Shown piece by piece: positions 3,215 to 25,762 of a stretch of 25,762 nt of DNA. Position 1 is the stretch's first letter. Each line of letters opens with the position of its first letter. The notes under the pieces are model-generated. The model saw nothing but the letters and a program-made list of their open reading frames with translations. It was not told the origin of the DNA and made no database searches. Both the position numbers and the translations under genes were made by a program. Origin of the DNA: a virus (taxonomy: Duplodnaviria > Caudoviricetes); the IMG/VR virus record IMGVR_UViG_3300047403_000169, positions 1-25,762 of that record. One strand, 5' to 3'.

Positions 3215-3234
3215 ATATATAAAAGGAGAAAAAA

Positions 3235-3360: not shown

Positions 3361-3372
3361 TATAAAAGTGTC

Positions 3373-6231: not shown

Positions 6232-6268
6232 TTGTTTTTTTCCATTAGTTTATTGTGTTGTTTATATA

Positions 6269-10054: not shown

Positions 10055-10065
10055 AATCGAGATAT

Positions 10066-10073
10066 TATAAATA
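10066..10073 (+). promoter_or_regulatory. T4-type late promoter
   Basis: TATAAATA 30 nt upstream of the endonuclease ATG. Confidence 0.6.
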
Positions 10074-10102
10074 GTATAAGGGTTGGTAGAAAGGATTCTT
10101 AT

Positions 10103-10849
10103 ATGTTTACACATTTCGAAAAGCGACAACTACAAGAGTGGTATACCAATATAAAACAACAAAGACATTCCAGAAACGAATACTCTGGAATGTCTCAAAG
10201 ACAAATCTGGATAAAGGCAAACCCGTGCCCATTGGAACAAAAGATAATTTCTCTATACACTGAAGGTCACGGATTCAAAACACTTGCCAAACATCTTGGA
10301 TTGACATACTCTGTATGTAGAAAATTGTGTATTGATTATATTGGTATAGAACACAGAAAAGGAATGAGTGTTGTCACCGACGCTCTAAGACAGAAAAGGA
10401 GTGATAATGTTAAGGGTGAGAAGTCGCCTTGGTATGATTGGCCACACAAAATGCCACAACTATTATCCAAGAATGGAAAAACGATACAAGGGTATTATAT
10501 AAAGAAAGATGGCAGCAAAGTTTGGTTACGATCTACATATGAGTATATAATGGCCAAATGGTTAGACAAAATCAATGCTGATTGGAAAACAGAAGAAAGA
10601 TGTTATATTCTCTCTAATGGAGAACGATACAGACCGGATTTCTTTATATATGAAAATAATGAAATGAAGACTATAATAGAAACGAAGTCAAGATATTTTA
10701 ACAAGGATAACAGAGAATACAAGTTTCATCTATTCAAGGAAGAATATAAATTGAATTGTATGATTGTAACAGACATAACAAAGTTTACGAATAATACTTA
10801 TCAACAGGAGTTAAAAGAATGGAAGCAAAAACGTATATTGGAAAACTAA
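10103..10849 (+). CDS. Free-standing putative homing endonuclease, PD-(D/E)XK type
   Basis: LRSTYE...YRPDFFI...IIETKS; sits between the two intein halves. Confidence 0.8.
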   Translation: MFTHFEKRQLQEWYTNIKQQRHSRNEYSGMSQRQIWIKANPCPLEQKIISLYTEGHGFKTLAKHLGLTYSVCRKLCIDYIGIEHRKGMSVVTDALRQKRSDNVKGEKSPWYDWPHKMPQLLSKNGKTIQGYYIKKDGSKVWLRSTYEYIMAKWLDKINADWKTEERCYILSNGERYRPDFFIYENNEMKTIIETKSRYFNKDNREYKFHLFKEEYKLNCMIVTDITKFTNNTYQQELKEWKQKRILEN

Positions 10850-10938
10850 AGTCCAGAAAGATTGTATCAAATGAAGATACATATGATATTCAAACATCAA
10901 CTCATAACTTTTTTGCTAATGACATTCTGGTACATAAC
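10819..10938 (+). other. Split intein C-fragment (NrdJ-1 type)
   Basis: Ends His-Asn with +1 Ser. Confidence 0.93.
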
Positions 10939-11880
10939 AGCGAAATCGTTCTTAGAAATCGTGAATTTTGCAATCTGACAGAAGTTGTTGTTAGAAGCAC
11001 CGACACTTTGGAAACTCTAAAGGAAAAAGTGAAGATTGGTACAATCTTTGGTACATTTCAATCGACATTGACAGATTTCAAATATCTTACAAAAAAATGG
11101 AAAGAAAACTGTGATGAAGAAAGATTGCTTGGTGTATCTTTGACTGGAATCATGGATAGTGCGCTAACAAATGGTAAACAGGGTCCGGAAAAACTAAAAG
11201 CTGTTTTAAATGAACTTCGAAAGATTGCGATAGATACAAACAAGATTTGGGCCAAGAAACTTGGGATTAATCAATCCGTTGCTGTGACTTGTGTTAAACC
11301 TAGCGGAACGGTTTCACAATTGGTAGATTCTGGTTCCGGTATTCATGCCAGACATTCACCTTATTATGTTCGGACGGTCAGAGCAGACAAAAAAGACCCA
11401 TTAGCTAAAATGATGGTCGATGCTGGATTTCCAGTTGAAGATGATGTAATGAAACCAAATCATACATATGTGTTTTCATTTCCTATTAAAACTTCTGGTG
11501 ACGCTGTATATCGAAAAGATTTAACAGCTATTCAGCAACTTGAAACCTGGTTGATATATTATCGCGAATGGTGTGAACATAAACCATCAATCACTGTAAC
11601 AGTCCGTGAAGAAGAATGGATGGAAGTTGGTGCTTGGGTATGGAATCATTTTGATGAAATGTCAGGTGTATCATTTCTACCATATTCAGATCATGTTTAT
11701 AAACAAGCGCCTTATCAAGACTGCACAAAAGAAGAATATGAGGCATTAGAAGCAAAGATGCCCAAGAATGTGGATTGGTCGAAGTTGTCTGAATATGAAA
11801 CACGCGATCATACTGCTGGTTCTCAAACAGCCGCATGTTCGGCAGATGGTTCTGGATGTGAGATTGTCGATCTAGTATAA
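10819..11880 (+). CDS. nrdJ: Split intein C-half (40 aa) fused to class II RNR C-part
   Basis: TYDIQTSTHNFFANDILVHN|SEIVL, FCNLTE, TCVKPSGTVSQL, C-terminal redox Cys pair. Confidence 0.95.
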   Translation: MEAKTYIGKLKSRKIVSNEDTYDIQTSTHNFFANDILVHNSEIVLRNREFCNLTEVVVRSTDTLETLKEKVKIGTIFGTFQSTLTDFKYLTKKWKENCDEERLLGVSLTGIMDSALTNGKQGPEKLKAVLNELRKIAIDTNKIWAKKLGINQSVAVTCVKPSGTVSQLVDSGSGIHARHSPYYVRTVRADKKDPLAKMMVDAGFPVEDDVMKPNHTYVFSFPIKTSGDAVYRKDLTAIQQLETWLIYYREWCEHKPSITVTVREEEWMEVGAWVWNHFDEMSGVSFLPYSDHVYKQAPYQDCTKEEYEALEAKMPKNVDWSKLSEYETRDHTAGSQTAACSADGSGCEIVDLV

Positions 11881-13933: not shown

Positions 13934-14478
13934 TAGGAATCGATTATAGTCTTACTTGTCCTTGTATATGTGTTCAAGAAAAAAGCAATACCAAATTTAT
14001 CGATTCTAAAATTCATTATCTAACAGACAATAAAAAAATGACTGGTGTTTTTGGTAATATCATCGGTCATTCTCATATGGATTATAATAGTCCAGAACAA
14101 CGCTATGAACAAATAACGTTTTGGACTATAAATCAGATGGAAAAGATATCAGATATAGAAAAAGTTTATATGGAAGATTATTCCTTTGGTAGCAAAGGAA
14201 AAGTATATAATATAGCCGAAAATGCAGGTCTCCTGAAATACCAAATGTATAAACTAGGAATAAAGTTTGAAACTATACCACCAACAAGAATAAAGAAATT
14301 CGTTGGTAAGGGAAACTATTCAAAGGATCAAATGTATGATGCTTTTCTGAATAAAACAGAAATAGATTTATACAAACAATTAGGAATAACAAGAGGTAAA
14401 AAAGTATCTTCTCCTGTTTCTGATATAGTAGATTCTTATTTTATTGCTTGTTACGGATTAGAACAAAATAATACTTGA
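13921..14478 (+). CDS. RuvC-like Holliday junction resolvase
   Basis: IIGIDYS, YMEDYSF, IAENAG, KKFVGKGN-SKDQM, DIVDSY. Confidence 0.85.
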   Translation: MGRIIGIDYSLTCPCICVQEKSNTKFIDSKIHYLTDNKKMTGVFGNIIGHSHMDYNSPEQRYEQITFWTINQMEKISDIEKVYMEDYSFGSKGKVYNIAENAGLLKYQMYKLGIKFETIPPTRIKKFVGKGNYSKDQMYDAFLNKTEIDLYKQLGITRGKKVSSPVSDIVDSYFIACYGLEQNNT

Positions 14479-14493
14479 AAACCAGACACACTG

Positions 14494-14522
14494 ATTATAT
14501 ACCACTGTCAATAGTGTGTCAA
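14494..14522 (-). promoter_or_regulatory. Minus-strand consensus sigma70 promoter
   Basis: Reverse complement reads TTGACA-17-TATAAT. Confidence 0.6.
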
Positions 14523-14640
14523 GTAAAAAAATCACATATTCATAAAAATATTTTTTGTCACAAAGCTTGATTTTGCTGCACCTGCTCACTATATATTAGT
14601 AGTCGCGCCAATCGTGGGCGACACAAAACAGGAGGTGCCT

Positions 14641-14886
14641 ATGTGGCCTTTATTTACCGATACTGAAAATAAGTTTTATTCCGAAGCAAAGAAGAACATG
14701 GAAACTTATGTAGAAAGAACAAAAGACTTTGTTTCCGATGTTACACAGTTTCAAGTCCGAGTTGCTAAGGATGTTGTTGATATGATCAACAAATATTCTG
14801 GAAATTCCTTTAATGTTTTTGAAGATATGTTCACAAAACAGGCTGAGGAATATCTCCGCATAGTTTCCGTTTATACTAAAAAGTAA
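14641..14886 (+). CDS. Small helical protein, possibly phasin-like
   Basis: GGAGG SD before ATG 14641; amphipathic helical 81 aa. Confidence 0.6.
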   Translation: MWPLFTDTENKFYSEAKKNMETYVERTKDFVSDVTQFQVRVAKDVVDMINKYSGNSFNVFEDMFTKQAEEYLRIVSVYTKK

Positions 14887-14908
14887 TATTCTGTAAAATA
14901 TTGTTATG

Positions 14909-14943
14909 AATCGTCTGTAATTGGATACAGTTGCAGACGATTT
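14909..14943 (+). terminator. Stem-loop / probable terminator
   Basis: AATCGTCTGTAATTG-GATA-CAGTTGCAGACGATT. Confidence 0.6.
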
Positions 14944-14955
14944 ATCACATATTTC

Positions 14956-14984
14956 TTGACTTCTTATGCATTATATTATATAAT
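14956..14984 (+). promoter_or_regulatory. Sigma70 promoter of the solitary QV mini-gene
   Basis: TTGACT-17-TATAAT; ATG at 14991. Confidence 0.8.
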
Positions 14985-14990
14985 GTAGGA

Positions 14991-15185
14991 ATGAAACTCA
15001 AATCAGTCAGTCATCAAGTCTCGGATCAAGTCAGGGATCAAGTCTGGGATCAAGTCTCGGATCAAGTCTATGATCAAGTCGGGGATCAAGTCTGGAATCA
15101 AGTCTGGAATCAAGTCTGGAATCAAGTCGGGGATCAAGTCTTGGATCAAGTCTTAGATATCATCAATAAAAATAAAACCCAATGA
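14991..15185 (+). CDS. Solitary xxQV-repeat mini-protein (64 aa, 12 units)
   Basis: MKLKSV-(xxQV)12[10 protein letters not shown]; same start as the array genes. Confidence 0.75.
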   Translation: MKLKSVSHQVSDQVRDQVWDQVSDQVYDQVGDQVWNQVWNQVWNQVGDQVLDQVLDIINKNKTQ

Positions 15186-15239
15186 AATCAATCACTTAGG
15201 CTAAGTCATTGAAATCATTGATTTTTTAGTTGTTGACTT
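15145..15239 (+). repeat. 95-bp direct repeat, copy 1 (mini-gene tail, palindrome and -35 box)
   Basis: Identical to 18308-18402. Confidence 0.9.
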
Positions 15240-15261
15240 GACTATATAATAATGATACAAT
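15233..15261 (+). promoter_or_regulatory. Sigma70 promoter of the partner gene
   Basis: TTGACT-17-TACAAT with TGn extension. Confidence 0.7.
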
Positions 15262-15318
15262 ACACATACAAAATCGGAATGGTTCTGATTTTTCATAAAG
15301 AAATAGGATGAATATAAC

Positions 15319-15672
15319 ATGAAGACTTTTGATCGAATGGCAGCGCAGGGTGACTTTATTATCATGCGAATTGCCGATCTTCCTGCTAATCTTGTGCCGC
15401 TTGCTACTGAGAATGGGAAGTATGTTGTCGCCCACTCGGAAACTGGTCATAATCACGTTATGACTATGGATCGTGTTAAGGGTTACAAGCGTAAGGAAAT
15501 CACGGACGATTCCAAGTTGTTTGAGTTGTTCTTTGCCGTTGAGGCACCTACGGAGATTGAGCATCTTCGGTCGTTTGATACCCATGAGACTATTCAGGTC
15601 AAGCCTGGTAACTATGTGGTTAAGCGGCAGCGGGAGTATGTCGCTGAAGGTTTCCGTAAGGCAGCCGACTAA
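15319..15672 (+). CDS. His-rich hypothetical protein, typical neighbour of DUF6745 genes
   Basis: QGDFII...AHSETGHNH...EH...THE...PGNYVVKRQREY motif set. Confidence 0.75.
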   Translation: MKTFDRMAAQGDFIIMRIADLPANLVPLATENGKYVVAHSETGHNHVMTMDRVKGYKRKEITDDSKLFELFFAVEAPTEIEHLRSFDTHETIQVKPGNYVVKRQREYVAEGFRKAAD

Positions 15673-15678
15673 TTCGTA

Positions 15679-15792
15679 TAACTCATTGATTTTATTGATA
15701 AAGAAAAACGTCAATAATTTCAATGGGTTATCCTAACTAACTGAAATCATTGATTTCTTTTCTCTTGCTTTAATATCCACCTGTGTTATTAT
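15679..15792 (+). promoter_or_regulatory. Palindromic cassette plus promoter of the DUF6745-like gene
   Basis: Inverted repeat 15679-15730; TTGCTT (15765) and TGn-TATTAT (15787). Confidence 0.6.
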
Positions 15793-15828
15793 ACACAGAC
15801 TAAACAGAAACGCCAAACGGAGTTTATT

Positions 15829-16689
15829 ATGATTAAAGAATTGACTAAGGTTCAGCAGGATCAGATTCCTGTTTATCGTGACAAGTGGCTTGATATCGGT
15901 CTTTCAACGGATCGTATTGATCGTGATAAGGCAATCGAGTCTGTAAAGAAGGCTTATAGGCTGGTTGGCCTAAAGGAACCGACTAAGTTTCATTTTGTTG
16001 ATTCCCCCACGGCTGCTATTAAATATATTCGGTCAATCGATTCCTCATTGACTGTTGATGATATTCTCGGTTCGACCATCTATGGCGCACATGACGCTGG
16101 TTGGCTTTCGTTCTATGAATACTTTAAAGAAGTTTGTGATATCAATGACTGTAACAAGCTTGATGGTCTATTTGAGTTGGCCAAGAATGTTGGTTGGACA
16201 AACGTATATGAGGACTTAGTCGTTTTCCAGGAAAAGCCTATCGCTATTCGGTTTGACGATCAGAAGCGGCTCCACTGTGAGACTGGTCCGGCTGTTGAAT
16301 ATGCTGATGGTTTTGGTTTTTATTCGTGGCATGGTGTAGTCATTCCGGCCGAGTGGATTACCAAGCGGTCTGAGTTGTCTCCCAAGACTGCACTCTCTTG
16401 GTCCAATATTGAGCAGCGCCGTGCGGCCTGTGAAATTGTGACTTGGGCTCGTATTCTTCGCGAGTTGAATGCTAAGATTATTGACGAGGATGCCGATCCT
16501 ATGATTGGTACGCTTGTCGAGGTTACTCTGCCCGATCTTGGTAAGGAGAAGTTTCTAAAGGTTCTTTGTGGTACCGGTCGTGAGTTTGCGATTCCTGTGC
16601 CGCCGGAAATGAAGACTGCGTTGGATGCCAATGCTTGGACTTTCGATCTTGATGGTAACACCCTTCGAAAGCTTGAAGTCCGAACCTGA
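15829..16689 (+). CDS. DUF6745-like protein without an internal repeat tract
   Basis: DKW...LST...DSP...YGAHDAGWLSFY...GW...EKP...RLHCETGPAVEYADGFGFYSWHGV...NIEQRR...CGTGREFAIPVPP; GGAG SD. Confidence 0.75.
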   Translation: MIKELTKVQQDQIPVYRDKWLDIGLSTDRIDRDKAIESVKKAYRLVGLKEPTKFHFVDSPTAAIKYIRSIDSSLTVDDILGSTIYGAHDAGWLSFYEYFKEVCDINDCNKLDGLFELAKNVGWTNVYEDLVVFQEKPIAIRFDDQKRLHCETGPAVEYADGFGFYSWHGVVIPAEWITKRSELSPKTALSWSNIEQRRAACEIVTWARILRELNAKIIDEDADPMIGTLVEVTLPDLGKEKFLKVLCGTGREFAIPVPPEMKTALDANAWTFDLDGNTLRKLEVRT

Positions 16690-16723
16690 TTAAAACTTGA
16701 TATTTTTAAACTCTATGTAAACT

Positions 16724-16757
16724 GGGAGGAGAGTTTTAAACTCTTCTCCCTTTTTTT
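16724..16757 (+). terminator. Intrinsic terminator
   Basis: GGGAGGAGAGTT..AACTCTTCTCCC followed by T7. Confidence 0.8.
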
Positions 16758-16765
16758 GAATTGCG

Positions 16766-16993
16766 ATGAAACTCAAATCAGTCGAGGCTCAAGTCTCGGA
16801 TCAAGTCAGGGATCAAGTCGAGGCTCAAGTCTCGGATCAAGTCCGGGATCAAGTCTGGCATCAAGTCTGGGGTCAAGTCGGGGCTCAAGTCAGGGATCAA
16901 GTCTGGCGTCAAGTCGGGGATCAAGTCTGGGATCAAGTCGAGGCTCAAGTCAGGAATCAAGTCTCGATTCAAGTCAGGACTATACATCGATGA
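16766..16993 (+). CDS. xxQV mini-protein A1 (75 aa)
   Basis: MKLKSV-(xxQV)16-RTIHR. Confidence 0.65.
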
Positions 16994-17169
16994 AACTCAA
17001 ATCAGTCAGGACTCAAGTCAGGGATCAAGTCTCGGATCAAGTCTCGGATCAAGTCGGGCGTCAAGTCTATGCTCAAGTCGGGAATCAAGTCTGGGATCAA
17101 GTCTGGAATCAAGTCAGGATTCAAGTCGGGGATCAAATCTGGCGTCAAGTCAAGACTCTACATCAATGA
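16990..17169 (+). CDS. xxQV mini-protein A2 (59 aa)
   Basis: ATGA overlap; 12 units; KTLHQ tail. Confidence 0.65.
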
Positions 17170-17405
17170 AACTCAAATCAGTCAAGAATCAAGTCTGGCA
17201 TCAAGTCGCGGCTCAAGTCTGGCGTCAAGTCGAGGCTCAAGTCTATGCTCAAGTCAGGAATCAAGTCTGGGATCAAGTCAGGGATCAAGTCAGGGATCAA
17301 ATCTGGAATCAAGTCTGGCATCAAGTCAAGAATCAAGTCAGGGATCAAGTCAGGGATCAAGTCAGGGATCAAATCTATGATCAAGTCAGGGCTATACATC
17401 GATGA
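17166..17405 (+). CDS. xxQV mini-protein A3 (79 aa)
   Basis: ATGA overlap; 17 units; RAIHR tail. Confidence 0.65.
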   Translation: MKLKSVKNQVWHQVAAQVWRQVEAQVYAQVRNQVWDQVRDQVRDQIWNQVWHQVKNQVRDQVRDQVRDQIYDQVRAIHR

Positions 17406-17641
17406 AACTCAAATCAGTCAAGGCTCAAGTTGAGGATCAAGTCGGGGATCAAGTCTGGGCTCAAGTCTCGAATCAAATCGGGATTCAAGTCTGGAATCAA
17501 GTCTCGGATCAAGTCAGGGCTCAAGTCTGGGATCAAGTCTGGAATCAAGTCTCGGATCAAGTCTGGAATCAAGTCAGGGATCAAGTCAGGGATCAAGTCA
17601 GGGATCAAATCTGGCGTCAAGTCAAGACTCTACATCAATGA
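17402..17641 (+). CDS. xxQV mini-protein A4 (79 aa)
   Basis: ATGA overlap; 17 units; KTLHQ tail. Confidence 0.65.
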   Translation: MKLKSVKAQVEDQVGDQVWAQVSNQIGIQVWNQVSDQVRAQVWDQVWNQVSDQVWNQVRDQVRDQVRDQIWRQVKTLHQ

Positions 17642-17733
17642 AACTCAAATCAGTCAAGAATCAAGTCAGGGATCAAGTCAGGGATCAAGTCAGGGATCAA
17701 ATCTGGCGTCAAGTCAAGACTCTACATCAATGA
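17638..17733 (+). CDS. xxQV mini-protein A5 (31 aa)
   Basis: ATGA overlap; 5 units; KTLHQ tail. Confidence 0.6.
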   Translation: MKLKSVKNQVRDQVRDQVRDQIWRQVKTLHQ

Positions 17734-17945
17734 AACTCAAATCAGTCAAGAATCAAGTCTGGCATCAAGTCGGGGCTCAAGTCTGGGATCAAGTCTCGGA
17801 TCAAGTCTCGGATCAAGTCTCGGATCAAGTCTGGCGTCAAGTCAGGGATCAAGTCAAGTCTCAAGTCTCGGATCAAGTCTTGCGTCAAGTCTGGGATCAA
17901 GTCTGGATTCAAGTCAGGAATCGAGTCAGGACTATACATCGATGA
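17730..17945 (+). CDS. xxQV mini-protein A6 (71 aa)
   Basis: ATGA overlap; 15 units; RTIHR tail. Confidence 0.65.
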   Translation: MKLKSVKNQVWHQVGAQVWDQVSDQVSDQVSDQVWRQVRDQVKSQVSDQVLRQVWDQVWIQVRNRVRTIHR

Positions 17946-18121
17946 AACTCAAATCAGTCAGGACTCAAGTCAGGGATCAAGTCTCGGATCAAGTCTCGGA
18001 TCAAGTCTGGGATCAAGTCGGGCATCAAATCTGGAATCAAGTCTCGGATCAAGTCAGGGTTCAAGTCTATACTCAAGTCTGGCATCAAGTCTGGGTTCAA
18101 GTCAAGACTCTACATCAATGA
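17942..18121 (+). CDS. xxQV mini-protein A7 (59 aa)
   Basis: ATGA overlap; 12 units; KTLHQ tail. Confidence 0.65.
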   Translation: MKLKSVRTQVRDQVSDQVSDQVWDQVGHQIWNQVSDQVRVQVYTQVWHQVWVQVKTLHQ

Positions 18122-18348
18122 AACTCAAATCAGTCAAGAATCAAGTCTCGGATCAAGTCTGGAATCAAGTCAGGGATCAAGTCAGGGATCAAGTCAGGGA
18201 TCAAATCTGGCGTCAAGTCTGGGCTCAAGTCTCGAATCAAATCGGGATTCAAATCTGGAATCAAGTCAGGGATCAAGTCAGGGATCAAATCTGGAATCAA
18301 GTCTGGCATCAAGTCTTAGATATCATCAATAAAAATAAAACCCAATGA
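18118..18348 (+). CDS. xxQV mini-protein A8 (76 aa)
   Basis: ATGA overlap; 15 units; [10 protein letters not shown] tail. Confidence 0.65.
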
Positions 18349-18402
18349 AATCAATCACTTAGGCTAAGTCATTGAAATCATTGATTTTTTAGTTGTTGAC
18401 TT
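18308..18402 (+). repeat. 95-bp direct repeat, copy 2
   Basis: Identical to 15145-15239; its TTGACT pairs with GATAAT at 18419. Confidence 0.9.
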
Positions 18403-18430
18403 ATTGTATCGGATATGAGATAATCTTTCC

Positions 18431-18694
18431 ATGATGAATAGGGATAAAAACATGACTGACAACATTAAGCCTTGTATTCATTTTGTGGGTTTTCGTGGAG
18501 AAGAATATAACTCGGCCGTGAAGATTTGGGGTAAGCCTGATTTTTTTCATAAGATTTGGGATTATCGCGCCGTCGGAGATATTGTTCCTGGTGTTGATAC
18601 TGTTATTTTCGCAAAATATTCGCCTGATGATAAACCGTCGGAATATTCATATGATGATTCTTCCTTTTATGCTGGTGATACTTATAACGCATAG
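18431..18694 (+). CDS. Hypothetical protein
   Basis: 87 aa, CIHFVGFRGEEYNSAVKIWGKPDF; has its own promoter. Confidence 0.75.
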   Translation: MMNRDKNMTDNIKPCIHFVGFRGEEYNSAVKIWGKPDFFHKIWDYRAVGDIVPGVDTVIFAKYSPDDKPSEYSYDDSSFYAGDTYNA

Positions 18695-18750
18695 CAGATA
18701 TGCAAAAAAAACATATTGACTTTTATTTTTGATTATGTTAGTATTACACC

Positions 18751-18912
18751 ATGATTGATGAAGAAAACATGATTGATCCGTTTGGCGATCCGGAATTTGT
18801 CGAGGGCTATAATGAATGGTTGGATAAATTCTGGTCACCAAACAGACTGAATAATTTTGAAGCAATGTTGACTTATTATAAGAGTTTGGAAGAATACGCG
18901 GAAAAAATTTAG
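18751..18912 (+). CDS. Small acidic protein, 53 aa (not in ORF track)
   Basis: Promoter TTGACT(18716)-17-TAGTAT directly upstream; MIDEENMIDPFGDPEF...EKI*. Confidence 0.55.
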   Translation: MIDEENMIDPFGDPEFVEGYNEWLDKFWSPNRLNNFEAMLTYYKSLEEYAEKI

Positions 18913-19010
18913 GTAGACTTTTGGATTAGATCGAATAGAATATTCAGTGAAGGTACAGCGGAATTTTAACCCACCCAGGCCAATATTCAAAAGTCTTCCT
19001 AAATTTTTTC

Positions 19011-19116
19011 TTGACAGTGACATAAAATTAAGATAGAATGATATATATATACTAAAGAGACACGAAAATTTTTTGGAAAAAAATATGTTGACAATTGGTA
19101 CAAAATATAATACACT
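19011..19116 (+). promoter_or_regulatory. Tandem sigma70 promoters upstream of the ncRNA/tRNA region
   Basis: TTGACA(19011)-17-TAGAAT and TTGACA(19088)-17-TACACT. Confidence 0.7.
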
Positions 19117-19122
19117 AAGAAA

Positions 19123-19720
19123 TCATAAAGAATGGCTGCGCTCATCGTTTGCCATCGATATGAAGGCTTGTTAGTAGGTAGTATATCTACATTTGTCTAC
19201 TGACAAGCCCGCCTCCAACAAGGCGGGTTTTTTGTTGAAAAGTGGCGGCATCCAGATAGTATCTGAAATGCCTTATGCGGAACGAGACTGCGGCACCACT
19301 ATAAAAAAGTCGAATGGTCGGCACCGAGGATGGATTTGCTGCTACGGTAGCAATGAAAAATACGGAGAAATTGGTAAAAAGCATATCATAGCAATATGGT
19401 ATGCTTACAATAGAGAATTTCCGGGTCTCAACATAAGTGCATTTGGGTGAGAAAGGACACTTGCTTTCATCCGTGACACAATCGGCCAAATGTAATTATG
19501 GTTCTGGTTATCAGTGGTGATATCGGACCTAGTTGTGAGGGAATGATATACAATCTATAACGCACCTCGACCGCGTCGAGGGGGTCCCGGAAATTTTCTA
19601 TTGTAAGCATATTATAGAGGCACGGTCGGGTCTGATACATGATACATAAGAAAGAGACCATCAGATGGCTGTCATGAGTGTGACTTACTCGCCGAGAACG
19701 TGAAAAGCGCGGCCACAGAG
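19123..19720 (+). ncRNA. Large structured non-coding RNA candidate (~590 nt)
   Basis: End-to-end helix 19133-19142/19706-19715; long internal helices with G-U pairs; GNRA and UNCG tetraloops; no credible ORF. Confidence 0.65.
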
Positions 19721-19734
19721 TCAATCAATCGTGT

Positions 19735-19803
19735 CGCGGGAAGCAAAAGTTGCCGTTTGGCCTCATACGTCAAATATAGCTGGGGCAGTACCAGCTCCCG
19801 CTA
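19735..19803 (+). tRNA. tRNA-Met (CAT), initiator-like, atypical
   Basis: GCGGGA/TCCCGC acceptor with unpaired C1; anticodon loop CTCATAC; non-canonical D and T loops. Confidence 0.55.
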
Positions 19804-19809
19804 CTTAAT

Positions 19810-19885
19810 GTCCCCATCGTCTAGTGGCCAAGGATAGAAGGCTTTCAATCTTTTGACGCCGGTTCGAATCCGGCTGGGGACACCA
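19810..19885 (+). tRNA. tRNA-Glu (TTC)
   Basis: Cloverleaf, GTTCGAATC, CCA end. Confidence 0.9.
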
Positions 19886-19970
19886 ATTTCATTTTCAACA
19901 CCACTGCAATGGCTTGAAAATGTTAGAGTGTCTTTTTCATAAAATGTCTTGCAGGACATTCAATGAAAAT

Positions 19971-20037
19971 GCTTGATTCGTCTAGAGGTAGGACGCCATC
20001 GATGGATGGGGACATTGGTTCGAATCCAATATCAATA
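19971..20037 (+). pseudogene. Degenerate tRNA-like element
   Basis: Intact D arm and T arm (GGTTCGAATCC); collapsed anticodon loop; no CCA. Confidence 0.5.
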
Positions 20038-20143
20038 TTACACTCTCAAAATTTTCCGCAGTTTCATCGAAAACTCCGGCGTACCCTAACCACGATAGAA
20101 CCGCTAAACAGTGTTATGGGCTCCTGTTTAGCACCGAATTTAT

Positions 20144-20218
20144 TGCTTCATAGTTCAGCGGTAGAACGCCTGACTGTTAATCAGGATGTCCGTGGTTCGA
20201 TCCCACGTGAAGCAGCCA
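20144..20218 (+). tRNA. tRNA-Asn (GTT)
   Basis: Cloverleaf, CCA end. Confidence 0.92.
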
Positions 20219-20223
20219 ATTAT

Positions 20224-20297
20224 GCTTCTGTAGTTTAACAGTAAAATCCTCGGCCGATAACCGAGAGACACAAGGGCGGAACTTGTCGGAAGCACCA
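20224..20297 (+). tRNA. tRNA-Ile (GAT)
   Basis: Loop CCGATAA, atypical T loop, CCA end. Confidence 0.8.
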
Positions 20298-20301
20298 ATT
20301 T

Positions 20302-20385
20302 GCCCAAGTGGTGTAATGGGAGCCACTCCAGTCTTAGGAACTGGTGGAGAAATCCGTGTCGGTTCGAATCCGACCTTGGGCACCA
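20302..20385 (+). tRNA. tRNA-Leu (TAG)
   Basis: Cloverleaf with long variable arm, CCA end. Confidence 0.92.
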
Positions 20386-20536
20386 AATTAGACTTGTAAT
20401 AGAACCACTAATTCTATGATTACAAGGAAAACGATTTCTATTTACTCTTATGAGTGGATAAGTTTGATAGAAATCTAAATTTTATGGTGATGATAGTAAG
20501 ATATAGTTTGTGTTAAGCCAATTGCCGCAATAATCC

Positions 20537-20619
20537 GGACCGGTTACCATAGCGGCGAATGGCGCAGACTTTTAATCTGCTATACAACATCGTGGGTTCG
20601 AGTCCCACCCGGTCCTCCA
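20537..20619 (+). tRNA. tRNA-Lys (TTT)
   Basis: Loop CTTTTAA, CCA end. Confidence 0.9.
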
Positions 20620-20628
20620 ATTTTATAA

Positions 20629-20703
20629 CCGGGAGTAGGAAAGTGGAAATCCGCATGTTTTGGGTACATGAAATCGTCAGTTCGAATCTGACCTTCCGGA
20701 CCA
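20629..20703 (+). tRNA. tRNA-Pro (TGG)
   Basis: Loop TTTGGGT, CCA end. Confidence 0.88.
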
Positions 20704-20713
20704 TTTTTGCAAT

Positions 20714-20789
20714 GAACCCATAATCATAATTGGCAATGAGACGGCCTCTTACTCCGTACATCCCAGTTCAAGTCTGGGTGGGTTCACCA
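20714..20789 (+). tRNA. tRNA-Lys (CTT)
   Basis: Loop CTCTTAC, CCA end. Confidence 0.8.
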
Positions 20790-20909
20790 TTTCTAAATAG
20801 TTTTATGTGTATAAACGAAAAACTATTTTTTATCGAAATCATTGGATTATGGGTAGCAATATTTTTATTGCTATTGTTAATCATTATGAAAAAATGAAAG
20901 GAGAAAACA

Positions 20910-21467
20910 ATGATTGGTCTACGGACTCTAGTTTTAAACTACGATTACATGCCAATTTCATTGTTTCCTCTTCACACTATTCCAGTTGAAGATGCTGTAA
21001 CGCGAATCTGTAACGATACATGTCGTGTCGTTTTTGAATATGACAGAAAGATTTTGACTCCATCCGTTGATATGAAATGGCCTTCTGTCATTGCTAGAAC
21101 GGACGTGAAGAAGATCAAGGAAAACGTCAAGCTTCGCCCGGAAGCATTATACTATCGGGATCATGGTGTTTGTATGTATTGCGAAAAGCGAATTACACTC
21201 CATGAAATGACTTGCGACCATGTCTATCCAAAAAGCCAAGGTGGCAAGTATGAATGGACTAATATCGTTTCTGCCTGCCCAAAATGTAATTACGAAAAAG
21301 GTAGTTCATTGCCAGTCGGTCGTTGGAGACCAAAACAGTTTCCAATCAAGCCATCTTATTATCAGTTATTAGAAGTTAGAAAAAGATTTCCAATCGTAAT
21401 CGATGATGAAAGTTGGATTGACTTTTTGAATGGCTGGAAAAGCGATGTTATCGTAAGAGCATCATAA
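20910..21467 (+). CDS. HNH endonuclease (McrA-like)
   Basis: TLVLN...PSVI...RDHGVCMYC...TCDHVYPKSQGG...WTNIVSACPKCN; AAGGAG SD. Confidence 0.92.
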   Translation: MIGLRTLVLNYDYMPISLFPLHTIPVEDAVTRICNDTCRVVFEYDRKILTPSVDMKWPSVIARTDVKKIKENVKLRPEALYYRDHGVCMYCEKRITLHEMTCDHVYPKSQGGKYEWTNIVSACPKCNYEKGSSLPVGRWRPKQFPIKPSYYQLLEVRKRFPIVIDDESWIDFLNGWKSDVIVRAS

Positions 21468-21472
21468 CCTTT

Positions 21473-21558
21473 GGGATTGCGGTAAAGTTGGAGAGTTACG
21501 GCGGACTGTAAATCCGTTGCCTAAGGCTCAATAGGTTCGATTCCTATCAATCCCACCA
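21473..21558 (+). tRNA. tRNA-Tyr (GTA)
   Basis: Cloverleaf, long variable arm, CCA end. Confidence 0.92.
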
Positions 21559-21562
21559 TTTC

Positions 21563-21639
21563 GCCCATGTAGTCCAATGGCAGGAGACACGGAACTTAAA
21601 ATTCCTACAGTGTCGGTTCGAATCCGACCTTGGGCACCA
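21563..21639 (+). tRNA. tRNA-Leu (TAA)
   Basis: Loop CTTAAAA, short variable arm, CCA end. Confidence 0.88.
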
Positions 21640-21642
21640 ATT

Positions 21643-21717
21643 GCGGTCGTGGTCTAGTGGTTTGGGCCCTGCGCTTCCAACGCAGAGACAGGATTTCGAT
21701 TATCCTCGGCCGCTCCA
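21643..21717 (+). tRNA. tRNA-Gly (TCC)
   Basis: Loop CTTCCAA, CCA end. Confidence 0.88.
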
Positions 21718-21725
21718 GTTTCAAT

Positions 21726-21799
21726 GCGGGTATGATGTAGTGGTAGCGTATCACGTTGCCAACGTGAATGTGTCAGTTCGATTCTGACTATCCGCGCCA
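21726..21799 (+). tRNA. tRNA-Gly (GCC)
   Basis: Loop TTGCCAA, CCA end. Confidence 0.9.
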
Positions 21800-21803
21800 T
21801 TTT

Positions 21804-21878
21804 GCCCATATAGTATAGTGGCTATTACAATGCTTTGGTAAGGCGTAAACAGTGGTTCAATTCCACTTGTGGGCACCA
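21804..21878 (+). tRNA. tRNA-Thr (GGT)
   Basis: Loop TTGGTAA, CCA end. Confidence 0.88.
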
Positions 21879-21920
21879 GTTATACGCATTTTGCATTTTG
21901 AGTATAACACAAATATTCAT

Positions 21921-21995
21921 GGACCCTTAGTTCAGCAGCAGAACGTCGCCTCTACACGGCGAATGTCGGCGGTGCAATCCCGTCAGGGTCTACCA
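21921..21995 (+). tRNA. tRNA-Val (TAC)
   Basis: Loop TCTACAC, CCA end. Confidence 0.8.
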
Positions 21996-21998
21996 ATT

Positions 21999-22073
21999 GG
22001 GGACGTAGTGCTAATGGGAAAACACTGGTTTTGCACTCCGGAGTTGAGGGTTCGATTCCCTCCGTCTCCACCA
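21999..22073 (+). tRNA. tRNA-Ala (TGC)
   Basis: G3-U70 pair, loop TTTGCAC, CCA end. Confidence 0.9.
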
Positions 22074-22078
22074 ATTTT

Positions 22079-22153
22079 GGCTCCATGGTCCAGTGGCTAA
22101 GATGCCTGTCTGTCTAACAGGAGATAGGGGTTCAATTCCCCTTGGAGTCGCCA
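22079..22153 (+). tRNA. tRNA-Asp (GTC)
   Basis: Loop CTGTCTA, CCA end. Confidence 0.9.
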
Positions 22154-22156
22154 CTC

Positions 22157-22232
22157 CGCGCTATCGTCTAATTGGCCAGGATTTCATCCTCTCAAGATGA
22201 AGGTACGGATTCAAATTCCGTTAGCGCGTCCA
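22157..22232 (+). tRNA. tRNA-Glu (CTC)
   Basis: Loop CTCTCAA, CCA end. Confidence 0.85.
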
Positions 22233-22349
22233 GATATTGATTATAAACTTATAGAATGTGGTTGGATTACGATTCAAGCATCGAAACATAACAACATACA
22301 ATAAAACAAGTAAGATGCATCCAGGCTCAAATTCCAATGTCATATTATG

Positions 22350-22492
22350 TAATAAAATCAAGCACTTGGAAATATGGCTAAGTCATTGATATTATTACTA
22401 AAAATAAAACTCAATGAAATCAAGCACTTAGGCTAAGTCATTGATATTATTGATTTCTTAGTTCTTGCTTTAGATTCCAGTTGATGTATAAT
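22350..22492 (+). promoter_or_regulatory. Doubled palindromic cassette plus sigma70 promoter of QV array 2
   Basis: AAATCAAGCACTT..GGCTAAGTCATTGATATTATT twice; TTGCTT(22465)-16-TATAAT; ATG at 22500. Confidence 0.75.
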
Positions 22493-22499
22493 AGTCAAC

Positions 22500-22703
22500 A
22501 TGAAACTCAAATCAGTCTGGCATCAAGTCAGGGATCAAGTCTGGGATCAAGTCAGGGATCAAGTCTCGGATCAAGTCAGGGATCAAGTCGGGGATCAAGT
22601 CTGGGATCAAGTCTCGGATCAAGTCTCGGATCAAATCTATGATCAAGTCAGGAATCAAGTCAGGAATCAAATCTATGATCAAGTCAGGGCTATACATCGA
22701 TGA
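22500..22703 (+). CDS. xxQV mini-protein B1 (67 aa)
   Basis: 14 units; RAIHR tail. Confidence 0.7.
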   Translation: MKLKSVWHQVRDQVWDQVRDQVSDQVRDQVGDQVWDQVSDQVSDQIYDQVRNQVRNQIYDQVRAIHR

Positions 22704-22915
22704 AACTCAAATCAGTCAAGGCTCAAGTTGAGGATCAAGTCTGGGATCAAGTCTGGGATCAAGCCTCGGATCAAGTCTATGCTCAAGTCTGGGATCAAGT
22801 CTGGCATCAAGTCTGGGCTCAAATCGGGGCTCAAGTCTGGCTTCAAGTCAGGCGTCAAGTCTTGGTTCAAGTCGAGGCTCAAGTCAGGCATCAAGTCTGG
22901 ACTATACATCGATGA
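22700..22915 (+). CDS. xxQV mini-protein B2 (71 aa)
   Basis: ATGA overlap; 15 units; WTIHR tail. Confidence 0.7.
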
Positions 22916-23127
22916 AACTCAAATCAGTCTGGCGTCAAGTCTCGGATCAAGCCTGGGCTCAAGTCTATGATCAAGTCTGGGATCAAGTCTCGGATCAAGT
23001 CAGGAATCAAGTCGGACGTCAAGTCTCGAATCAAGTCAGGAATCAAGTCGGACGTCAAGTCTCGAATCAAGTCAGGAATCAAGTCAGGGATCAAGTCTGG
23101 CGTCAAGTCAGGACTATACATCGATGA
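22912..23127 (+). CDS. xxQV mini-protein B3 (71 aa)
   Basis: ATGA overlap; 15 units; RTIHR tail. Confidence 0.7.
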
Positions 23128-23315
23128 AACTCAAATCAGTCAGGAGTCAAGTCAGGAGTCAAGTCTCGATTCAAGTCTGGAATCAAGTCTGGCGTCAAGT
23201 CTCGGATCAAGTCAGGGCTCAAGTCTCGAATCAAGTCTGGGATCAAGTCAGGGCTCAAGTCTGGGATCAAGTCTATGCTCAAGTCAGGCATCAAGTCAGG
23301 ACTATACATCAATGA
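23124..23315 (+). CDS. xxQV mini-protein B4 (63 aa)
   Basis: ATGA overlap; 13 units; RTIHQ tail. Confidence 0.7.
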   Translation: MKLKSVRSQVRSQVSIQVWNQVWRQVSDQVRAQVSNQVWDQVRAQVWDQVYAQVRHQVRTIHQ

Positions 23316-23503
23316 AACTCAAATCAGTCTGGCGTCAAGTCGGGCATCAAATCTGGAATCAAGTCGGGTCTCAAGTCTCGAATCAAGTCTGGCGTCAAGT
23401 CAGGGATCAAGTCTGGCGTCAAGTCGGGGATCAAGTCTGGGCTCAAGTCACGGCTCAAGTCTGGACTCGAGTCTGGGATCAAGTCAGGACTATACATCAA
23501 TGA
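23312..23503 (+). CDS. xxQV mini-protein B5 (63 aa)
   Basis: ATGA overlap; 13 units; RTIHQ tail. Confidence 0.7.
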
Positions 23504-23667
23504 AACTCAAATCAGTCTATGCTCAAGTCTCGGATCAAGTCTGGACTCAAGTCTCGAATCAAGTCTGGGCTCAAGTCTCGGATCAAGTCTCGGATCAAGT
23601 CTATGATCAAGTCTCGAATCAAGTCTGGGATCAAGTCTGGCGTCAAGTCAGGACTATACATCGATGA
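23500..23667 (+). CDS. xxQV mini-protein B6 (55 aa)
   Basis: ATGA overlap; 11 units; RTIHR tail. Confidence 0.7.
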
Positions 23668-23855
23668 AACTCAAATCAGTCAGGACTCAAGTCGAGGCTC
23701 AAGTCTGGGATCAAATCTGGGATCAAGTCGAGGCTCAAGTCTGGGATCAAGTCTGGGATCAAGTCTGGGATCAAGTCAGGGCTCAAGTCGAGGCTCAAGT
23801 CTGGGCTCAAATCAGGGCTCAAGTCTGGAATCGAGTCAGGACTATACATCAATGA
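23664..23855 (+). CDS. xxQV mini-protein B7 (63 aa)
   Basis: ATGA overlap; 13 units; RTIHQ tail. Confidence 0.7.
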   Translation: MKLKSVRTQVEAQVWDQIWDQVEAQVWDQVWDQVWDQVRAQVEAQVWAQIRAQVWNRVRTIHQ

Positions 23856-24103
23856 AACTCAAATCAGTCAGGCGTCAAGTCGAGGCTAAAGTCAGGCGTC
23901 AAGTCGAGGCTCAAGTCTGGCGTCAAGTCGAGGCTCAAGTCTGGGCTCAAATCAGGGCTCAAGTCTGGGATCAAGTCAGGGCTCAAGTCTGGGCTCAAGT
24001 CTTGGTTCAAGTCAGGCGTCAAGTCAGGAATCAAGTCTGGCGTCAAGTCTGGACTCAAGTCTGGGATCAAGTCTGGCGTCAAGTCAGGACTATACATCGA
24101 TGA
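23852..24103 (+). CDS. xxQV mini-protein B8 (83 aa)
   Basis: ATGA overlap; 18 units; RTIHR tail. Confidence 0.7.
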
Positions 24104-24414
24104 AACTCAAATCAGTCAGGCATTCAGTCTATGATCAAGTCTTGGATCAAGTCTGGGATCAAGTCTGGGATCAAGTCTCGATTCAAGTCAGGAATCAAGT
24201 CTGGGATCAAGTCTGGGATCAAGTCTGGGTTCAAGTCTCGAATCAAGTCTGGGATCAAGTCTGGCGTCAAGTCAGGGATCAAGTCTGGGATCAAGTCTGG
24301 GATCAAGCCTCGGATCAAGTCGGGGATCAAGTCTCGGATCAAGTCTTGGTTCAAGTCTGGAATCAAGTCAGGCGTCAAGTCAGGGATCAAGTCTATGCTC
24401 AAGTCCGGAACTAA
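24100..24414 (+). CDS. xxQV mini-protein B9 (104 aa)
   Basis: ATGA overlap; 24 units; ends RN*. Confidence 0.7.
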
Positions 24415-24422
24415 GATAGTTA

Positions 24423-24451
24423 TTGACTTATCTTTATTATAGTAGTATAAT
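24423..24451 (+). promoter_or_regulatory. Sigma70 promoter of the downstream tRNA block
   Basis: TTGACT-17-TATAAT. Confidence 0.8.
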
Positions 24452-24461
24452 ACAAATATGA

Positions 24462-24535
24462 TGGGAGATCGTCCAACGGCAAGACCGCGGCCTTTGACTC
24501 CGCTAATCTAGGTTCGAATCCTAGTCTCCCAACCA
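24462..24535 (+). tRNA. tRNA-Gln (TTG)
   Basis: Loop CTTTGAC, CCA end. Confidence 0.9.
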
Positions 24536-24543
24536 GTTTCAAT

Positions 24544-24617
24544 ATCGCGTTGGTATAGTGGTTGTGCACCAGTCTCCAAAACTGGCAAGGTGGGTTCGAT
24601 TCCTACACGCGGTGCCA
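24544..24617 (+). tRNA. tRNA-Trp (CCA)
   Basis: Loop CTCCAAA, CCA end. Confidence 0.9.
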
Positions 24618-24623
24618 TCCAAT

Positions 24624-24700
24624 GCTTCCGTAGCTCAATTGAATAGAGCACCGAGCTTCTACCTCGGGGGTTGTGGGTTTGAATCCTACCGGGAGCGCCA
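24624..24700 (+). tRNA. tRNA-Arg (TCT)
   Basis: Loop CTTCTAC, CCA end. Confidence 0.9.
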
Positions 24701-24707
24701 ATTTCAT

Positions 24708-24784
24708 GGACCTATAGTTCAATCGAATAGAACGTCCGGCTTCGAACCGGAAGGTTGTGAGTTTGAGTCCCACTAGGTCCTCCA
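24708..24784 (+). tRNA. tRNA-Arg (TCG)
   Basis: Loop CTTCGAA, CCA end. Confidence 0.88.
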
Positions 24785-24788
24785 TTTT

Positions 24789-24864
24789 GTTTCCTTGGTG
24801 AAATCGGAAATCACAAAAGTCTACGAAACTTTAGTTCCAGGTTCGAATCCTGGAGGGAACACCA
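24789..24864 (+). tRNA. tRNA-Arg (ACG)
   Basis: Loop CTACGAA, CCA end. Confidence 0.88.
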
Positions 24865-24865
24865 T

Positions 24866-24937
24866 GGCTCTGAATATGATTATTGCTTGCGTTTCATAAG
24901 CGCGATGTTTTCGGTTTGATTCCGAACGGAGCCACCA
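24866..24937 (+). tRNA. tRNA-Met or Ile2 (CAT)
   Basis: Loop TTCATAA, reduced D arm, CCA end. Confidence 0.7.
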
Positions 24938-24941
24938 AATT

Positions 24942-25015
24942 GCCGCAATAGTATAATGGCATTATTTCTCTTTCGTAATGAGAAGACTCAGGCTCGAATC
25001 CTGATTGCGGCTCCA
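24942..25015 (+). tRNA. tRNA-Thr (CGT)
   Basis: Loop TTCGTAA, CCA end. Confidence 0.85.
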
Positions 25016-25020
25016 ATTTT

Positions 25021-25096
25021 GCCCTAGTGACGGAATGGCATACGTATCTGATTCAAAACCAGAGTTTTAGGAGTTCAAGTCTCCTCTGGGGCACCA
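25021..25096 (+). tRNA. tRNA-Leu (CAA)
   Basis: Loop TTCAAAA, short variable arm, CCA end. Confidence 0.85.
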
Positions 25097-25157
25097 ATGG
25101 TAAAGGACGTTATTATCGTAGAGTTCGATATGCTCAAGGAAAAAGCTTTTAGTTTAG

Positions 25158-25240
25158 GCCGGCATCGCATAGTGGCTATTGCAACGGTTTTGTAAACCGT
25201 CGGGAAACCTTCGGGGGTTCGAGTCCCTCTGCCGGCACCA
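25158..25240 (+). tRNA. tRNA-Thr (TGT)
   Basis: Loop TTTGTAA, extended variable arm, CCA end. Confidence 0.85.
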
Positions 25241-25373
25241 GTTTCTTATGCGAGCCTCCTTTTGTAAATGCAGCCGATCCAATGGTATGTATGGAGATAA
25301 TGACTTGGACATATTCCTAGGTAAATATGAAAGTCTAAATGTCTTGAAAAAGAATGCTCGCTCCAATTTCAAT

Positions 25374-25449
25374 GGCGCCGTGGTCCGAATGTCTAGGCAA
25401 CTGTCTGCAAAACAGTTTTATGTGGGTTAAAGTCCCATCGGTGCCTCCA
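25374..25449 (+). tRNA. tRNA-Cys (GCA)
   Basis: Loop CTGCAAA, U73, CCA end. Confidence 0.88.
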
Positions 25450-25454
25450 TTATT

Positions 25455-25530
25455 GTCTCTCTAGTGTTGTTGGTCAGCACGGCGCGCTGAAAACGCGCAG
25501 GATACGGTTCGATCCCGTGGGGAGGCACCA
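25455..25530 (+). tRNA. tRNA-Phe (GAA)
   Basis: Loop CTGAAAA, CCA end. Confidence 0.9.
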
Positions 25531-25536
25531 TTTTAT

Positions 25537-25613
25537 GGTGTTTGTAGTGTTAGCGGCTAGCACGACTGATTGTGATCCAGTTAGCGCGGGTTCGAATCCC
25601 GTCAATCACCCCA
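25537..25613 (+). tRNA. tRNA-His (GTG)
   Basis: G-1/C73, loop TTGTGAT, CCA end. Confidence 0.88.
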
Positions 25614-25663
25614 AAATGTATGCGATAAACGACATTTTGAAATGTATGCGATAAACGACATTT
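25614..25663 (+). repeat. 24-bp tandem direct repeat
   Basis: AAATGTATGCGATAAACGACATTT at 25614 and 25640. Confidence 0.85.
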
Positions 25664-25665
25664 AT

Positions 25666-25739
25666 GGGCCCTGAGTCCGAAAGTAAGACGGCGCTTTGAC
25701 ATGGCGTAGAAACAGGAGCGTTACCTGTAGGGCCCACCA
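25666..25739 (+). tRNA. tRNA-Val (GAC)
   Basis: Loop TTGACAT, atypical T loop, CCA end. Confidence 0.8.
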
Positions 25740-25762
25740 TTTTATGGAGAGACAGCCATTGG

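Follow-up and report, generated by a model that had tools for sequence, protein, structure and literature searches.

Why should a phage carry 18 different small genes, all built from one tetrapeptide repeat, beside a single gene of the DUF6745 family? The question is raised by a 25,762-nucleotide (nt) stretch from a T4-like phage (Duplodnaviria; Caudoviricetes; positions 1 to 25,762 of IMG/VR record IMGVR_UViG_3300047403_000169, rated 17% complete by CheckV), which is called the window throughout. A first-pass annotation of its letters had proposed a diversified peptide repertoire that works with the DUF6745-like protein and its His-rich neighbour. We find that the mini-genes are, judged by repeat type and register, the detached form of a tetrapeptide tract that other DUF6745 proteins carry internally, and that their products are predicted to dock onto the tract-less core. 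The genes concerned are the following (aa, amino acids).

14991..15185, plus strand: mini-gene A1 (locus A), 64 aa, 12 xxQV units
15319..15672, plus strand: His-rich partner, 117 aa (phrog_27831), predicted all-beta
15829..16689, plus strand: repeat-less DUF6745 gene, 286 aa (PF20530, phrog_31813; 113.2 bits against a cut-off of 27, E = 1.4e-32)
16766..18348, plus strand: array B (locus B), eight ATGA-coupled mini-genes of 5–17 units each, starting at 16766, 16990, 17166, 17402, 17638, 17730, 17942 and 18118
22500..24414, plus strand: array C (locus C), nine ATGA-coupled mini-genes of 11–24 units each, starting at 22500, 22700, 22912, 23124, 23312, 23500, 23664, 23852 and 24100

The 18-nt head ATGAAACTCAAATCAGTC is found exactly 18 times in the window, always on the plus and never on the minus strand. 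Each copy opens a gene of the form MKLKSV-(x-x-Q-V)n with n = 5 to 24, and our recount bears out the annotated figures of one, eight and nine genes in the three loci, 257 repeat units and 18 differing peptides. The units, each of 12 nt, come in 60 distinct sequences. The inserts, 60–288 nt long and differing in length by multiples of 12 nt, consist of 5–24 copies of the phage's own unit. All 15 internal genes have the length of 11+4n aa that had been reported and overlap the next gene by ATGA. The single conserved junction of about 35 nt was described too simply: internal genes share it in five tail variants (RTIHR, RTIHQ, KTLHQ, RAIHR and WTIHR), and the three terminal genes depart from it, two with a common ending and the third ending in RN. 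The AGGA motif said to lie usually upstream is present before just eight of the 15 internal starts. Within the units, positions 6–12 are near-constant (T-CAA-GTC) and variation is limited to two codons, x1 (W 91, R 62, S 41, G 20, Y 14, E 13, K 8, L 6) and x2 (D 109, N 41, A 40, R 27, H 14). Pfam and NCBIfam matches of the mini-proteins (DUF4816, over the cut-off for C9; GvpQ; Cas2; others) were dismissed as compositional noise.

That the inserts are coding and combinatorial, as annotated, is backed by these differing peptides and by the avoidance of stop codons. None of the 257 units has a stop at its first variable codon, compared with 20.2 stops expected from base frequencies (the units are copied and hence non-independent), and TAG is absent even though a single base change would produce it from six of the x1 codons found there. 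Related arrays contain one stop against 185 expected in 2,747 units from 59 loci, read at the DNA level with stops ignored. The +2 frame of the tracts has 10 stops and the +1 frame none, but the latter is open by composition. Contigs of two sequencing runs, X1 and X2, match the window at 14400–15042, 15750–16809 and 15210–16809 with no differences and bridge into loci A and B; either run is possibly the source sample of the window, and the array interiors are spanned by no listed contig, such that the exact order of units may still contain errors. Over window positions 15025–15152, X1 and X2 contigs also join other junction types to xxQV units, and related phages with their own arrays therefore seem to be present in the same samples. 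Many phages share this design but join their genes by different junctions, which overlap by 4, 8, 14 or 17 nt, and two array-bearing relatives (L017, L018) have a T7-like primase-helicase context. The runs with the locus are mostly freshwater or other aquatic metagenomes from 13 studies. Contigs of two RNA runs (X18, X19) cover a variant of A1, the partner and DUF6745 and are possibly DNA-derived. By all these sequence features, the arrays are real, coding and widespread.

A scan of viral contigs for the head motif found 16 loci, with arrays solely at L007 and L011. The first holds three MKLKSV genes (3019–3622) beside uvsW/uvsY-like genes, and the second a single one (6259–6457) at the contig end beside helicase/recombinase-like genes, both with the head and junction of the window; the third L007 gene and window gene C9 have their first units in common. 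Contigs of X1 and X2 match L007 with 0–2 differences, and the phage of the window thus probably has further arrays. Coverage of L007 in X18 and X19 is near nil, low cover being no proof of absence.

The link between the mini-genes and DUF6745 is explained by the fused members of the family. In these, a period-4 tract lies between a D-S-P and a G-x-H/Q-D/E-A-x-W motif. The window protein, whose label as DUF6745-like is confirmed by the Pfam match listed above, has at this site a non-repetitive helical linker of about 25 aa (residues 60–85), and the internal tract is missing. Fused tracts of the xxQV type are found in eight relatives (L088, L098, L103, L113, L116, L118, L126 and L128) and an xxQL tract in a Mycobacterium prophage (L021); elsewhere the units are xxSV, xxSL, xxNL, xxAT, xxAV or xxAA. 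The x1 residues of fused tracts are mostly W/R/G/Y/S/E, matching the window mini-genes, which share repeat and register with the fused tract.

Free mini-genes and fused tracts are almost mutually exclusive. We surveyed 196 loci, namely the best 80 of 214 viral, the best 80 of at least 495 metagenomic, all 32 genomic and three annotated ones plus the window, a sample that leans to close, repeat-less relatives. Clustering at 90% identity gave 97 clusters, of which eight were set aside (five with long inserts, two unclassifiable, one mixed); fused labels were assigned by hand from the linker sequences. Free mini-genes adjoin 49 of the 62 repeat-less clusters (window included) compared with one of the 27 fused clusters, and this one proved a false match to an unrelated repeat on the opposite strand. 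The His-rich partner adjoins DUF6745 in 57 of 62 repeat-less and in all 27 fused clusters, and about 21 of the 85 distinct repeat-less loci have a mini-gene that begins directly at the stop codon of DUF6745. The suggestion that the mini-genes travel with the two larger genes thus holds in many unrelated phages. Fisher's p of 8.5e−12 is inflated, because independent changes on the tree are few: the fused label falls mostly into one group, inside which L087 is repeat-less with free genes and outside which L097 is fused without them. The exclusion of free and fused forms is strong in the loci compared, but rests on few independent events.

Several relatives deviate in other ways. A fused DUF6745 (L133; L215, 5645–6769) has W/R/E-S-A-A units, the unit type of mycobacteriophage Tweety gp54, and the tract type may therefore be common to unrelated carrier proteins. 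The N- and C-terminal domains of the fused protein in L108 (5182–6624) lie in different frames, with the shift inside the tract, owing to slippage or to an assembly error. Directly 3' of the fused gene in L116 is a hexapeptide-repeat (LbH) gene (7295–7957), a second repeat protein of the early operon. In a clade without nearby free mini-genes (L052, L053, L059, L198), the partner sits within a far longer open frame of 240–280 codons, and in L047 the partner and DUF6745 profiles match one frame, unlike in the identical L048, which is possibly an assembly error.

The claim that the peptides work with the larger protein is probably right, according to a complex model of the window DUF6745 with mini-protein B2. 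The model scored 0.78, the best of three controls 0.00, and the score mark is met by 116 of 157 solved complexes and by 2 of 215 mismatched pairs. Between runs, at least 96% of the contacts coincide, and the predicted local distance difference test (pLDDT) of the partner chain is at least 80. All 12 Q and all 12 V/I residues of B2 touch the core, as do nine of the 12 x1 and one of the 12 x2 residues. Head residues 4–7 contact core residues 126–128, Y43 and L48, and KSV is the commonest head among mini-proteins of relatives (212 of 385, redundant loci included). The core linker 60–85 belongs to the modelled interface, which places the free helix where the fused tract would be. This single model supports binding of the mini-protein to the repeat-less DUF6745; it predicts that the KSV head would pair with core strand 126–128 and the Q-V stripe with the N-terminal helices, leaving x2, and partly x1, facing the solvent.

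Less can be said about the folds of the two constant proteins. Their models have a pLDDT of 91 (DUF6745) and 82 (partner). For neither model did Foldseek find a PDB entry at E ≤ 0.001, and PDB sequence searches gave no significant match. The best VIA-align Z was 4.1 for DUF6745 (root-mean-square deviation, rmsd, 4.1; 65 aligned; rows mainly of residues 205–274) and 3.4 for the partner (rmsd 3.9; 80 aligned). A viral structure library matched solely DUF6745-like or uncharacterised proteins, and the ESM Atlas just unnamed viral clusters; its DUF6745 structure row (template modelling score 0.61) was discarded as weak, an unrelated Rpn protein having scored 0.90 on the same long helix. The fold searches show neither a new nor a different fold for either protein. 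Nor did they support a cupin fold for the partner. Invariant residues of the partner (H39, H44, H46, H82, H89, D12, D87 and E106) suggest a metal site.

How, then, might the parts act together? We propose that the core and its partner would form a constant unit onto which swappable helices are loaded, each mini-protein setting a different specificity, most likely for a host defence protein. That the tract was split off into free, diversifying, expressed genes whose products dock onto the core we regard as likely; granted this, an anti-defence role is an evenly balanced proposition, and the entire chain from split tract to defence binding stands a little short of an even chance. The anti-defence step is inferred by analogy with Tweety gp54. 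This protein has 40–48 tetrapeptide units between two domains, with third codon positions fixed, and resembles the window in its 12-bp unit of two invariant and two variable residues and in its variable unit number (PMC2884959). A change in its unit number is described as allowing escape from the Phrann gp29/gp30 defence (PMC9262239), and tract length tuning gp54 would be the parallel to the helices proposed here. The WS-AA unit of gp54 recurs in the fused DUF6745 of L133, and its early region is similar, upstream of whiB-type genes. Unlike the window, gp54 is a single gene with its tract in cis, with neither a library nor a known His-rich partner.

The other comparable proteins are closer relatives. 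The fused DUF6745 proteins (Mycobacterium prophage prophiGD102-1 gp38/gp37; MW202476, UOF77368) have the N- and C-terminal domains, the partner and a period-4 tract as in the window family; in the window the tract instead lies outside the protein, as 18 free coupled genes in three loci. Gp174/gp175 of Microcystis phage Ma-LMM01 belong to the same family, gp174 with a long insert and no clear tract, and Table S3 of PMC5780444 places both in the non-late expression class B5. Among 15 loci scanned (nine longest open reading frames, ORFs, each; 126 in total), 11 lie among repressor, recombinase, integrase or replication genes. This genomic context points to a non-structural accessory role.

Several observations weigh against the proposed chain. 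Outside the repeat, gp54 and DUF6745 are not detectably related (hhalign probability 0.1%, E = 0.55, and no PF20530 in gp54), and homology would be confined at most to the repeat. No free repeat was seen close to 13 of the 62 repeat-less clusters, for 12 of which the flank extends to 3 kb or more, and the core can thus occur without a nearby library; two of the 13 (L076, L196) hold a degenerate repeat. On a weakly resolved quick tree the fused label needs only five changes. One mini-protein, B2, was modelled, the calibration of the score holds just roughly for the alignments used, and halves of split genes tend to pass it. PADLOC profiles matched none of five proteins to a defence family at E 0.01, and no NCBIfam family or fold match points to a target, an activity or a defence. 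The net charge of the peptides, which spans −4 to +12, fits no single target class. Class B5 contains 162 Ma-LMM01 genes and is little informative (PMC5780444). Finally, length differences between short-read assemblies perhaps reflect partial collapse, which does not explain differing unit content.

That content changes quickly. In 168 strain pairs, which are non-independent, an identity of 97.7% in DUF6745 compares with 88.6%, over aligned bases, in the first mini-gene downstream; this mini-gene is identical in 11 pairs and of equal length in 26. A close relative, L135, has the window's neighbours and hairpin, yet two genes in array B against eight here. The sequences compared indicate that the arrays change much faster than DUF6745. 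Runs of at least four identical units are common to six gene pairs, compared with 0.1 in shuffles; arrays B and C have a 76-nt block in common that crosses a junction, and loci A and B share 95 nt of tail and promoter cassette. Simple slippage was rejected as the main driver (16 of 239 adjacent units identical against 11–13 in shuffles, p = 0.09–0.22). On the simplest reading, diversity is probably driven by recombination between units and junctions; the exchanging elements would be the 12-nt units, the 36-nt junctions and the promoter cassettes. What the sequences show directly is selection against in-frame stops, coupling by ATGA and this rapid turnover between strains.

The rival that survives best takes the mini-protein as a structural subunit completing the DUF6745 fold, with copy number and x-x diversity as a largely neutral product of recombination, filtered against stops and helix breakers. 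The near-constancy of synonymous sites (CAA GTC in most units) is what DNA-level homogenisation would produce, array B has eight genes here and two in L135, and the variable codons are mostly one-step neighbours. Variation is nevertheless placed in codon positions 1 and 2 of two sites with third positions fixed, a pattern in which the Tweety authors saw selection for variation (PMC2884959). Unrelated lineages whose junctions differ keep the W/R/S/Y/G alphabet and multi-gene arrays, and one gene would suffice for a structural role. We consider this rival rather unlikely.

A self/non-self or exclusion device directed at co-infecting phages or prophages, in which the library widens the range of rivals, is a less probable option. 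It would suit the fused forms found in prophage early regions, and hypervariable alleles are typical of recognition systems; the models of DUF6745 and the partner contain no membrane segment, however, and no known exclusion family appears among the PADLOC and NCBIfam matches. A nucleic-acid reader we find improbable. In it, the pair of variable residues in each unit would recognise bases or backbone, much as the repeat-variable diresidues of transcription activator-like effectors do, and would bring the His-rich subunit to its DNA or RNA target. The presence of two variable residues per unit, aromatic residues or Arg at x1 with D/N/H/R at x2, a rise along the helix of about 6 Å per unit near the spacing of an extended single strand, and the partner's invariant His/Asp/Glu speak for such a reader, but 109 of the 257 x2 positions are Asp, the net charge of several peptides is acidic, the helix face drifts by 40 degrees per unit and neither protein confidently matched a nuclease or nucleic-acid-binding fold. 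An assembly artefact or non-coding minisatellite is very improbable, since the collapse or shuffling of 12-nt repeats in short-read assemblies, the stop-free +1 frame and the unspanned arrays are outweighed by stop avoidance, starts that fit promoters, a frame set by the fused homologues, the compositional openness of +1, the recurrence of the design with other junctions in dozens of phages and contigs that enter loci A and B without differences.

Two known diversity systems invite comparison with the loading of swappable helices. CRISPR (clustered regularly interspaced short palindromic repeats) arrays alternate a constant junction with variable inserts, which are foreign-derived spacers of a uniform 25–45 nt. 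Diversity-generating retroelements (DGRs) vary a protein surface on a constant scaffold, with adenine-specific variation. The likeness to CRISPR noted in the first-pass annotation extends to layout alone and not to mechanism, the inserts being endogenous 12-nt units. The adenine specificity of DGRs is likewise absent: the adenines of CAA are near-invariant (253/257 and 257/257), and T, G, A and C vary at positions 1–5. Neither Cas1 nor a reverse transcriptase (PF00078) was found in the 17%-complete record. By the features checked, the arrays are neither a CRISPR array nor a DGR.

The control elements around these genes are listed below, with fold z scores where computed.

14956..14984, plus strand: sigma70-type promoter TTGACT-17-TATAAT, 11 of 12 consensus matches
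15145..15261, plus strand: cassette of mini-gene end, AT-rich imperfect palindrome and TTGACT promoter (z −2.4)
15673..15797, plus strand: related cassette, AT-rich hairpin and TTGCTT promoter-like site, before DUF6745 (z −6.1)
16724..16760, plus strand: terminator- or attenuator-like 12-bp hairpin with T-run between DUF6745 and array B (z −4.2)
18308..18424, plus strand: second cassette copy, whose promoter leads ORF 18431–18694
22340..22492, plus strand: duplicated palindromic cassette with TTGCTT/TATAAT promoter-like site (z −4.75)

The A1 and C1 ATG codons lie 6 and 7 nt past the −10 box (TATAAT), and leaderless mRNAs are therefore predicted. Host-type promoters would give leaderless or coupled translation in early to middle infection; the T4 late promoter TATAAATA was not found in 14–25 kb of the window. 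The annotation had assigned one promoter cassette family to all three loci, which stands for locus C alone: a cassette of palindrome and promoter lies ahead of locus C, the partner, DUF6745 and ORF 18431 (for which no family match was found), locus A has a bare TTGACT-17-TATAAT promoter without palindrome, and the promoter scan found none at locus B, which begins 6 nt behind the terminator-like hairpin. Expression of array B would depend on read-through of this hairpin, and it may be a low-expression or reserve set. The hairpin has a counterpart in L135 (1639–1669). A terminator-like hairpin between DUF6745 and the first mini-gene also occurs in L025, L079, L083, L184 and others, whereas in other lineages the mini-gene overlaps the DUF6745 stop. 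The four related cassettes have z from −1.0 to −6.1, and stem support is uneven.

Positions 15145–15239 and 18308–18402 are identical over 95 nt, a direct repeat enclosing the partner, DUF6745 and array B. Such an arrangement fits the promoter-early stem-loop (PeSL) cassettes of T4-type phages, which combine a sigma70 promoter with a stem-loop, flank variable genes and offer recombination sites (PMC2839356, PMC4122927). Like these, the window cassettes are repeated promoters with adjacent stem-loops upstream of non-core genes; their stems are AT-rich, whereas PeSL stems are often polyG/polyC and AT-rich at internal protein (IP) loci (PMC2839356). PeSL-like cassettes are ordinary for T4-type phages. 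They shuffle whole unrelated ORFans and leave the combinatorial coding repeat and its docking to the core unexplained.

The tetrapeptide building block has precedent, and the architecture is apparently the new part, with the anti-defence function suggested by analogy. The architecture itself is well supported and apparently undescribed in print: searches for DUF6745/PF20530 and for the repeat and concept found no description in openly licensed literature, supplements lying outside their scope. If docking holds, this would be a way of diversifying specificity unlike DGRs, shufflons or CRISPR, in which the variable tract is kept as coupled micro-genes for one core. Aquatic phages of various types commonly have it, as the 49 of 62 repeat-less clusters suggest, and annotation easily overlooks it. 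Core and tract as separate small proteins would lend themselves to simple binding, structure and target screens, and offer a handle on the old puzzle of how tetrapeptide tracts such as that of gp54 tune specificity. A bolder version, which we regard as possible but doubtful, sees a widespread system in which the DUF6745 scaffold and a metal-binding partner are loaded in trans from a genome-wide library of at least 18, probably more than 20, plug-in helices, rewritten by recombination of 12-nt units into an antibody-like repertoire that neutralises many host immune proteins without a reverse transcriptase or site-specific recombinase.

Further features of the window concern its setting. It encodes a T4-type primase, whose best matches are 46–48% to cyanophages and Methylophilales phages, a RuvC-like resolvase and a cluster of 25–27 tRNAs; an Rfam search of 14400–25762 found tRNAs only. 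Array C sits in this cluster between tRNA-Glu(ctc) and tRNA-Gln, 1 kb downstream of an HNH endonuclease gene (20910–21467) that also lies within it. The stretch 18692–19407, continuing to 19800 before the tRNA cluster, is mostly non-coding and 86% identical in L135, above the DUF6745 identity; it had no Rfam match at gathering score over 18692–19800 and may hold a structured RNA. Further upstream, ORFs 8741–10054 and 10819–11880 are presumably a ribonucleotide reductase in two parts; intein-like sequence forms the end of the first and the start of the second (C...; ...HN-S), and a 248-aa ORF between them resembles what we take to be an endonuclease. The layout of 8741–11880 points to a split intein into which a homing endonuclease gene has been inserted.

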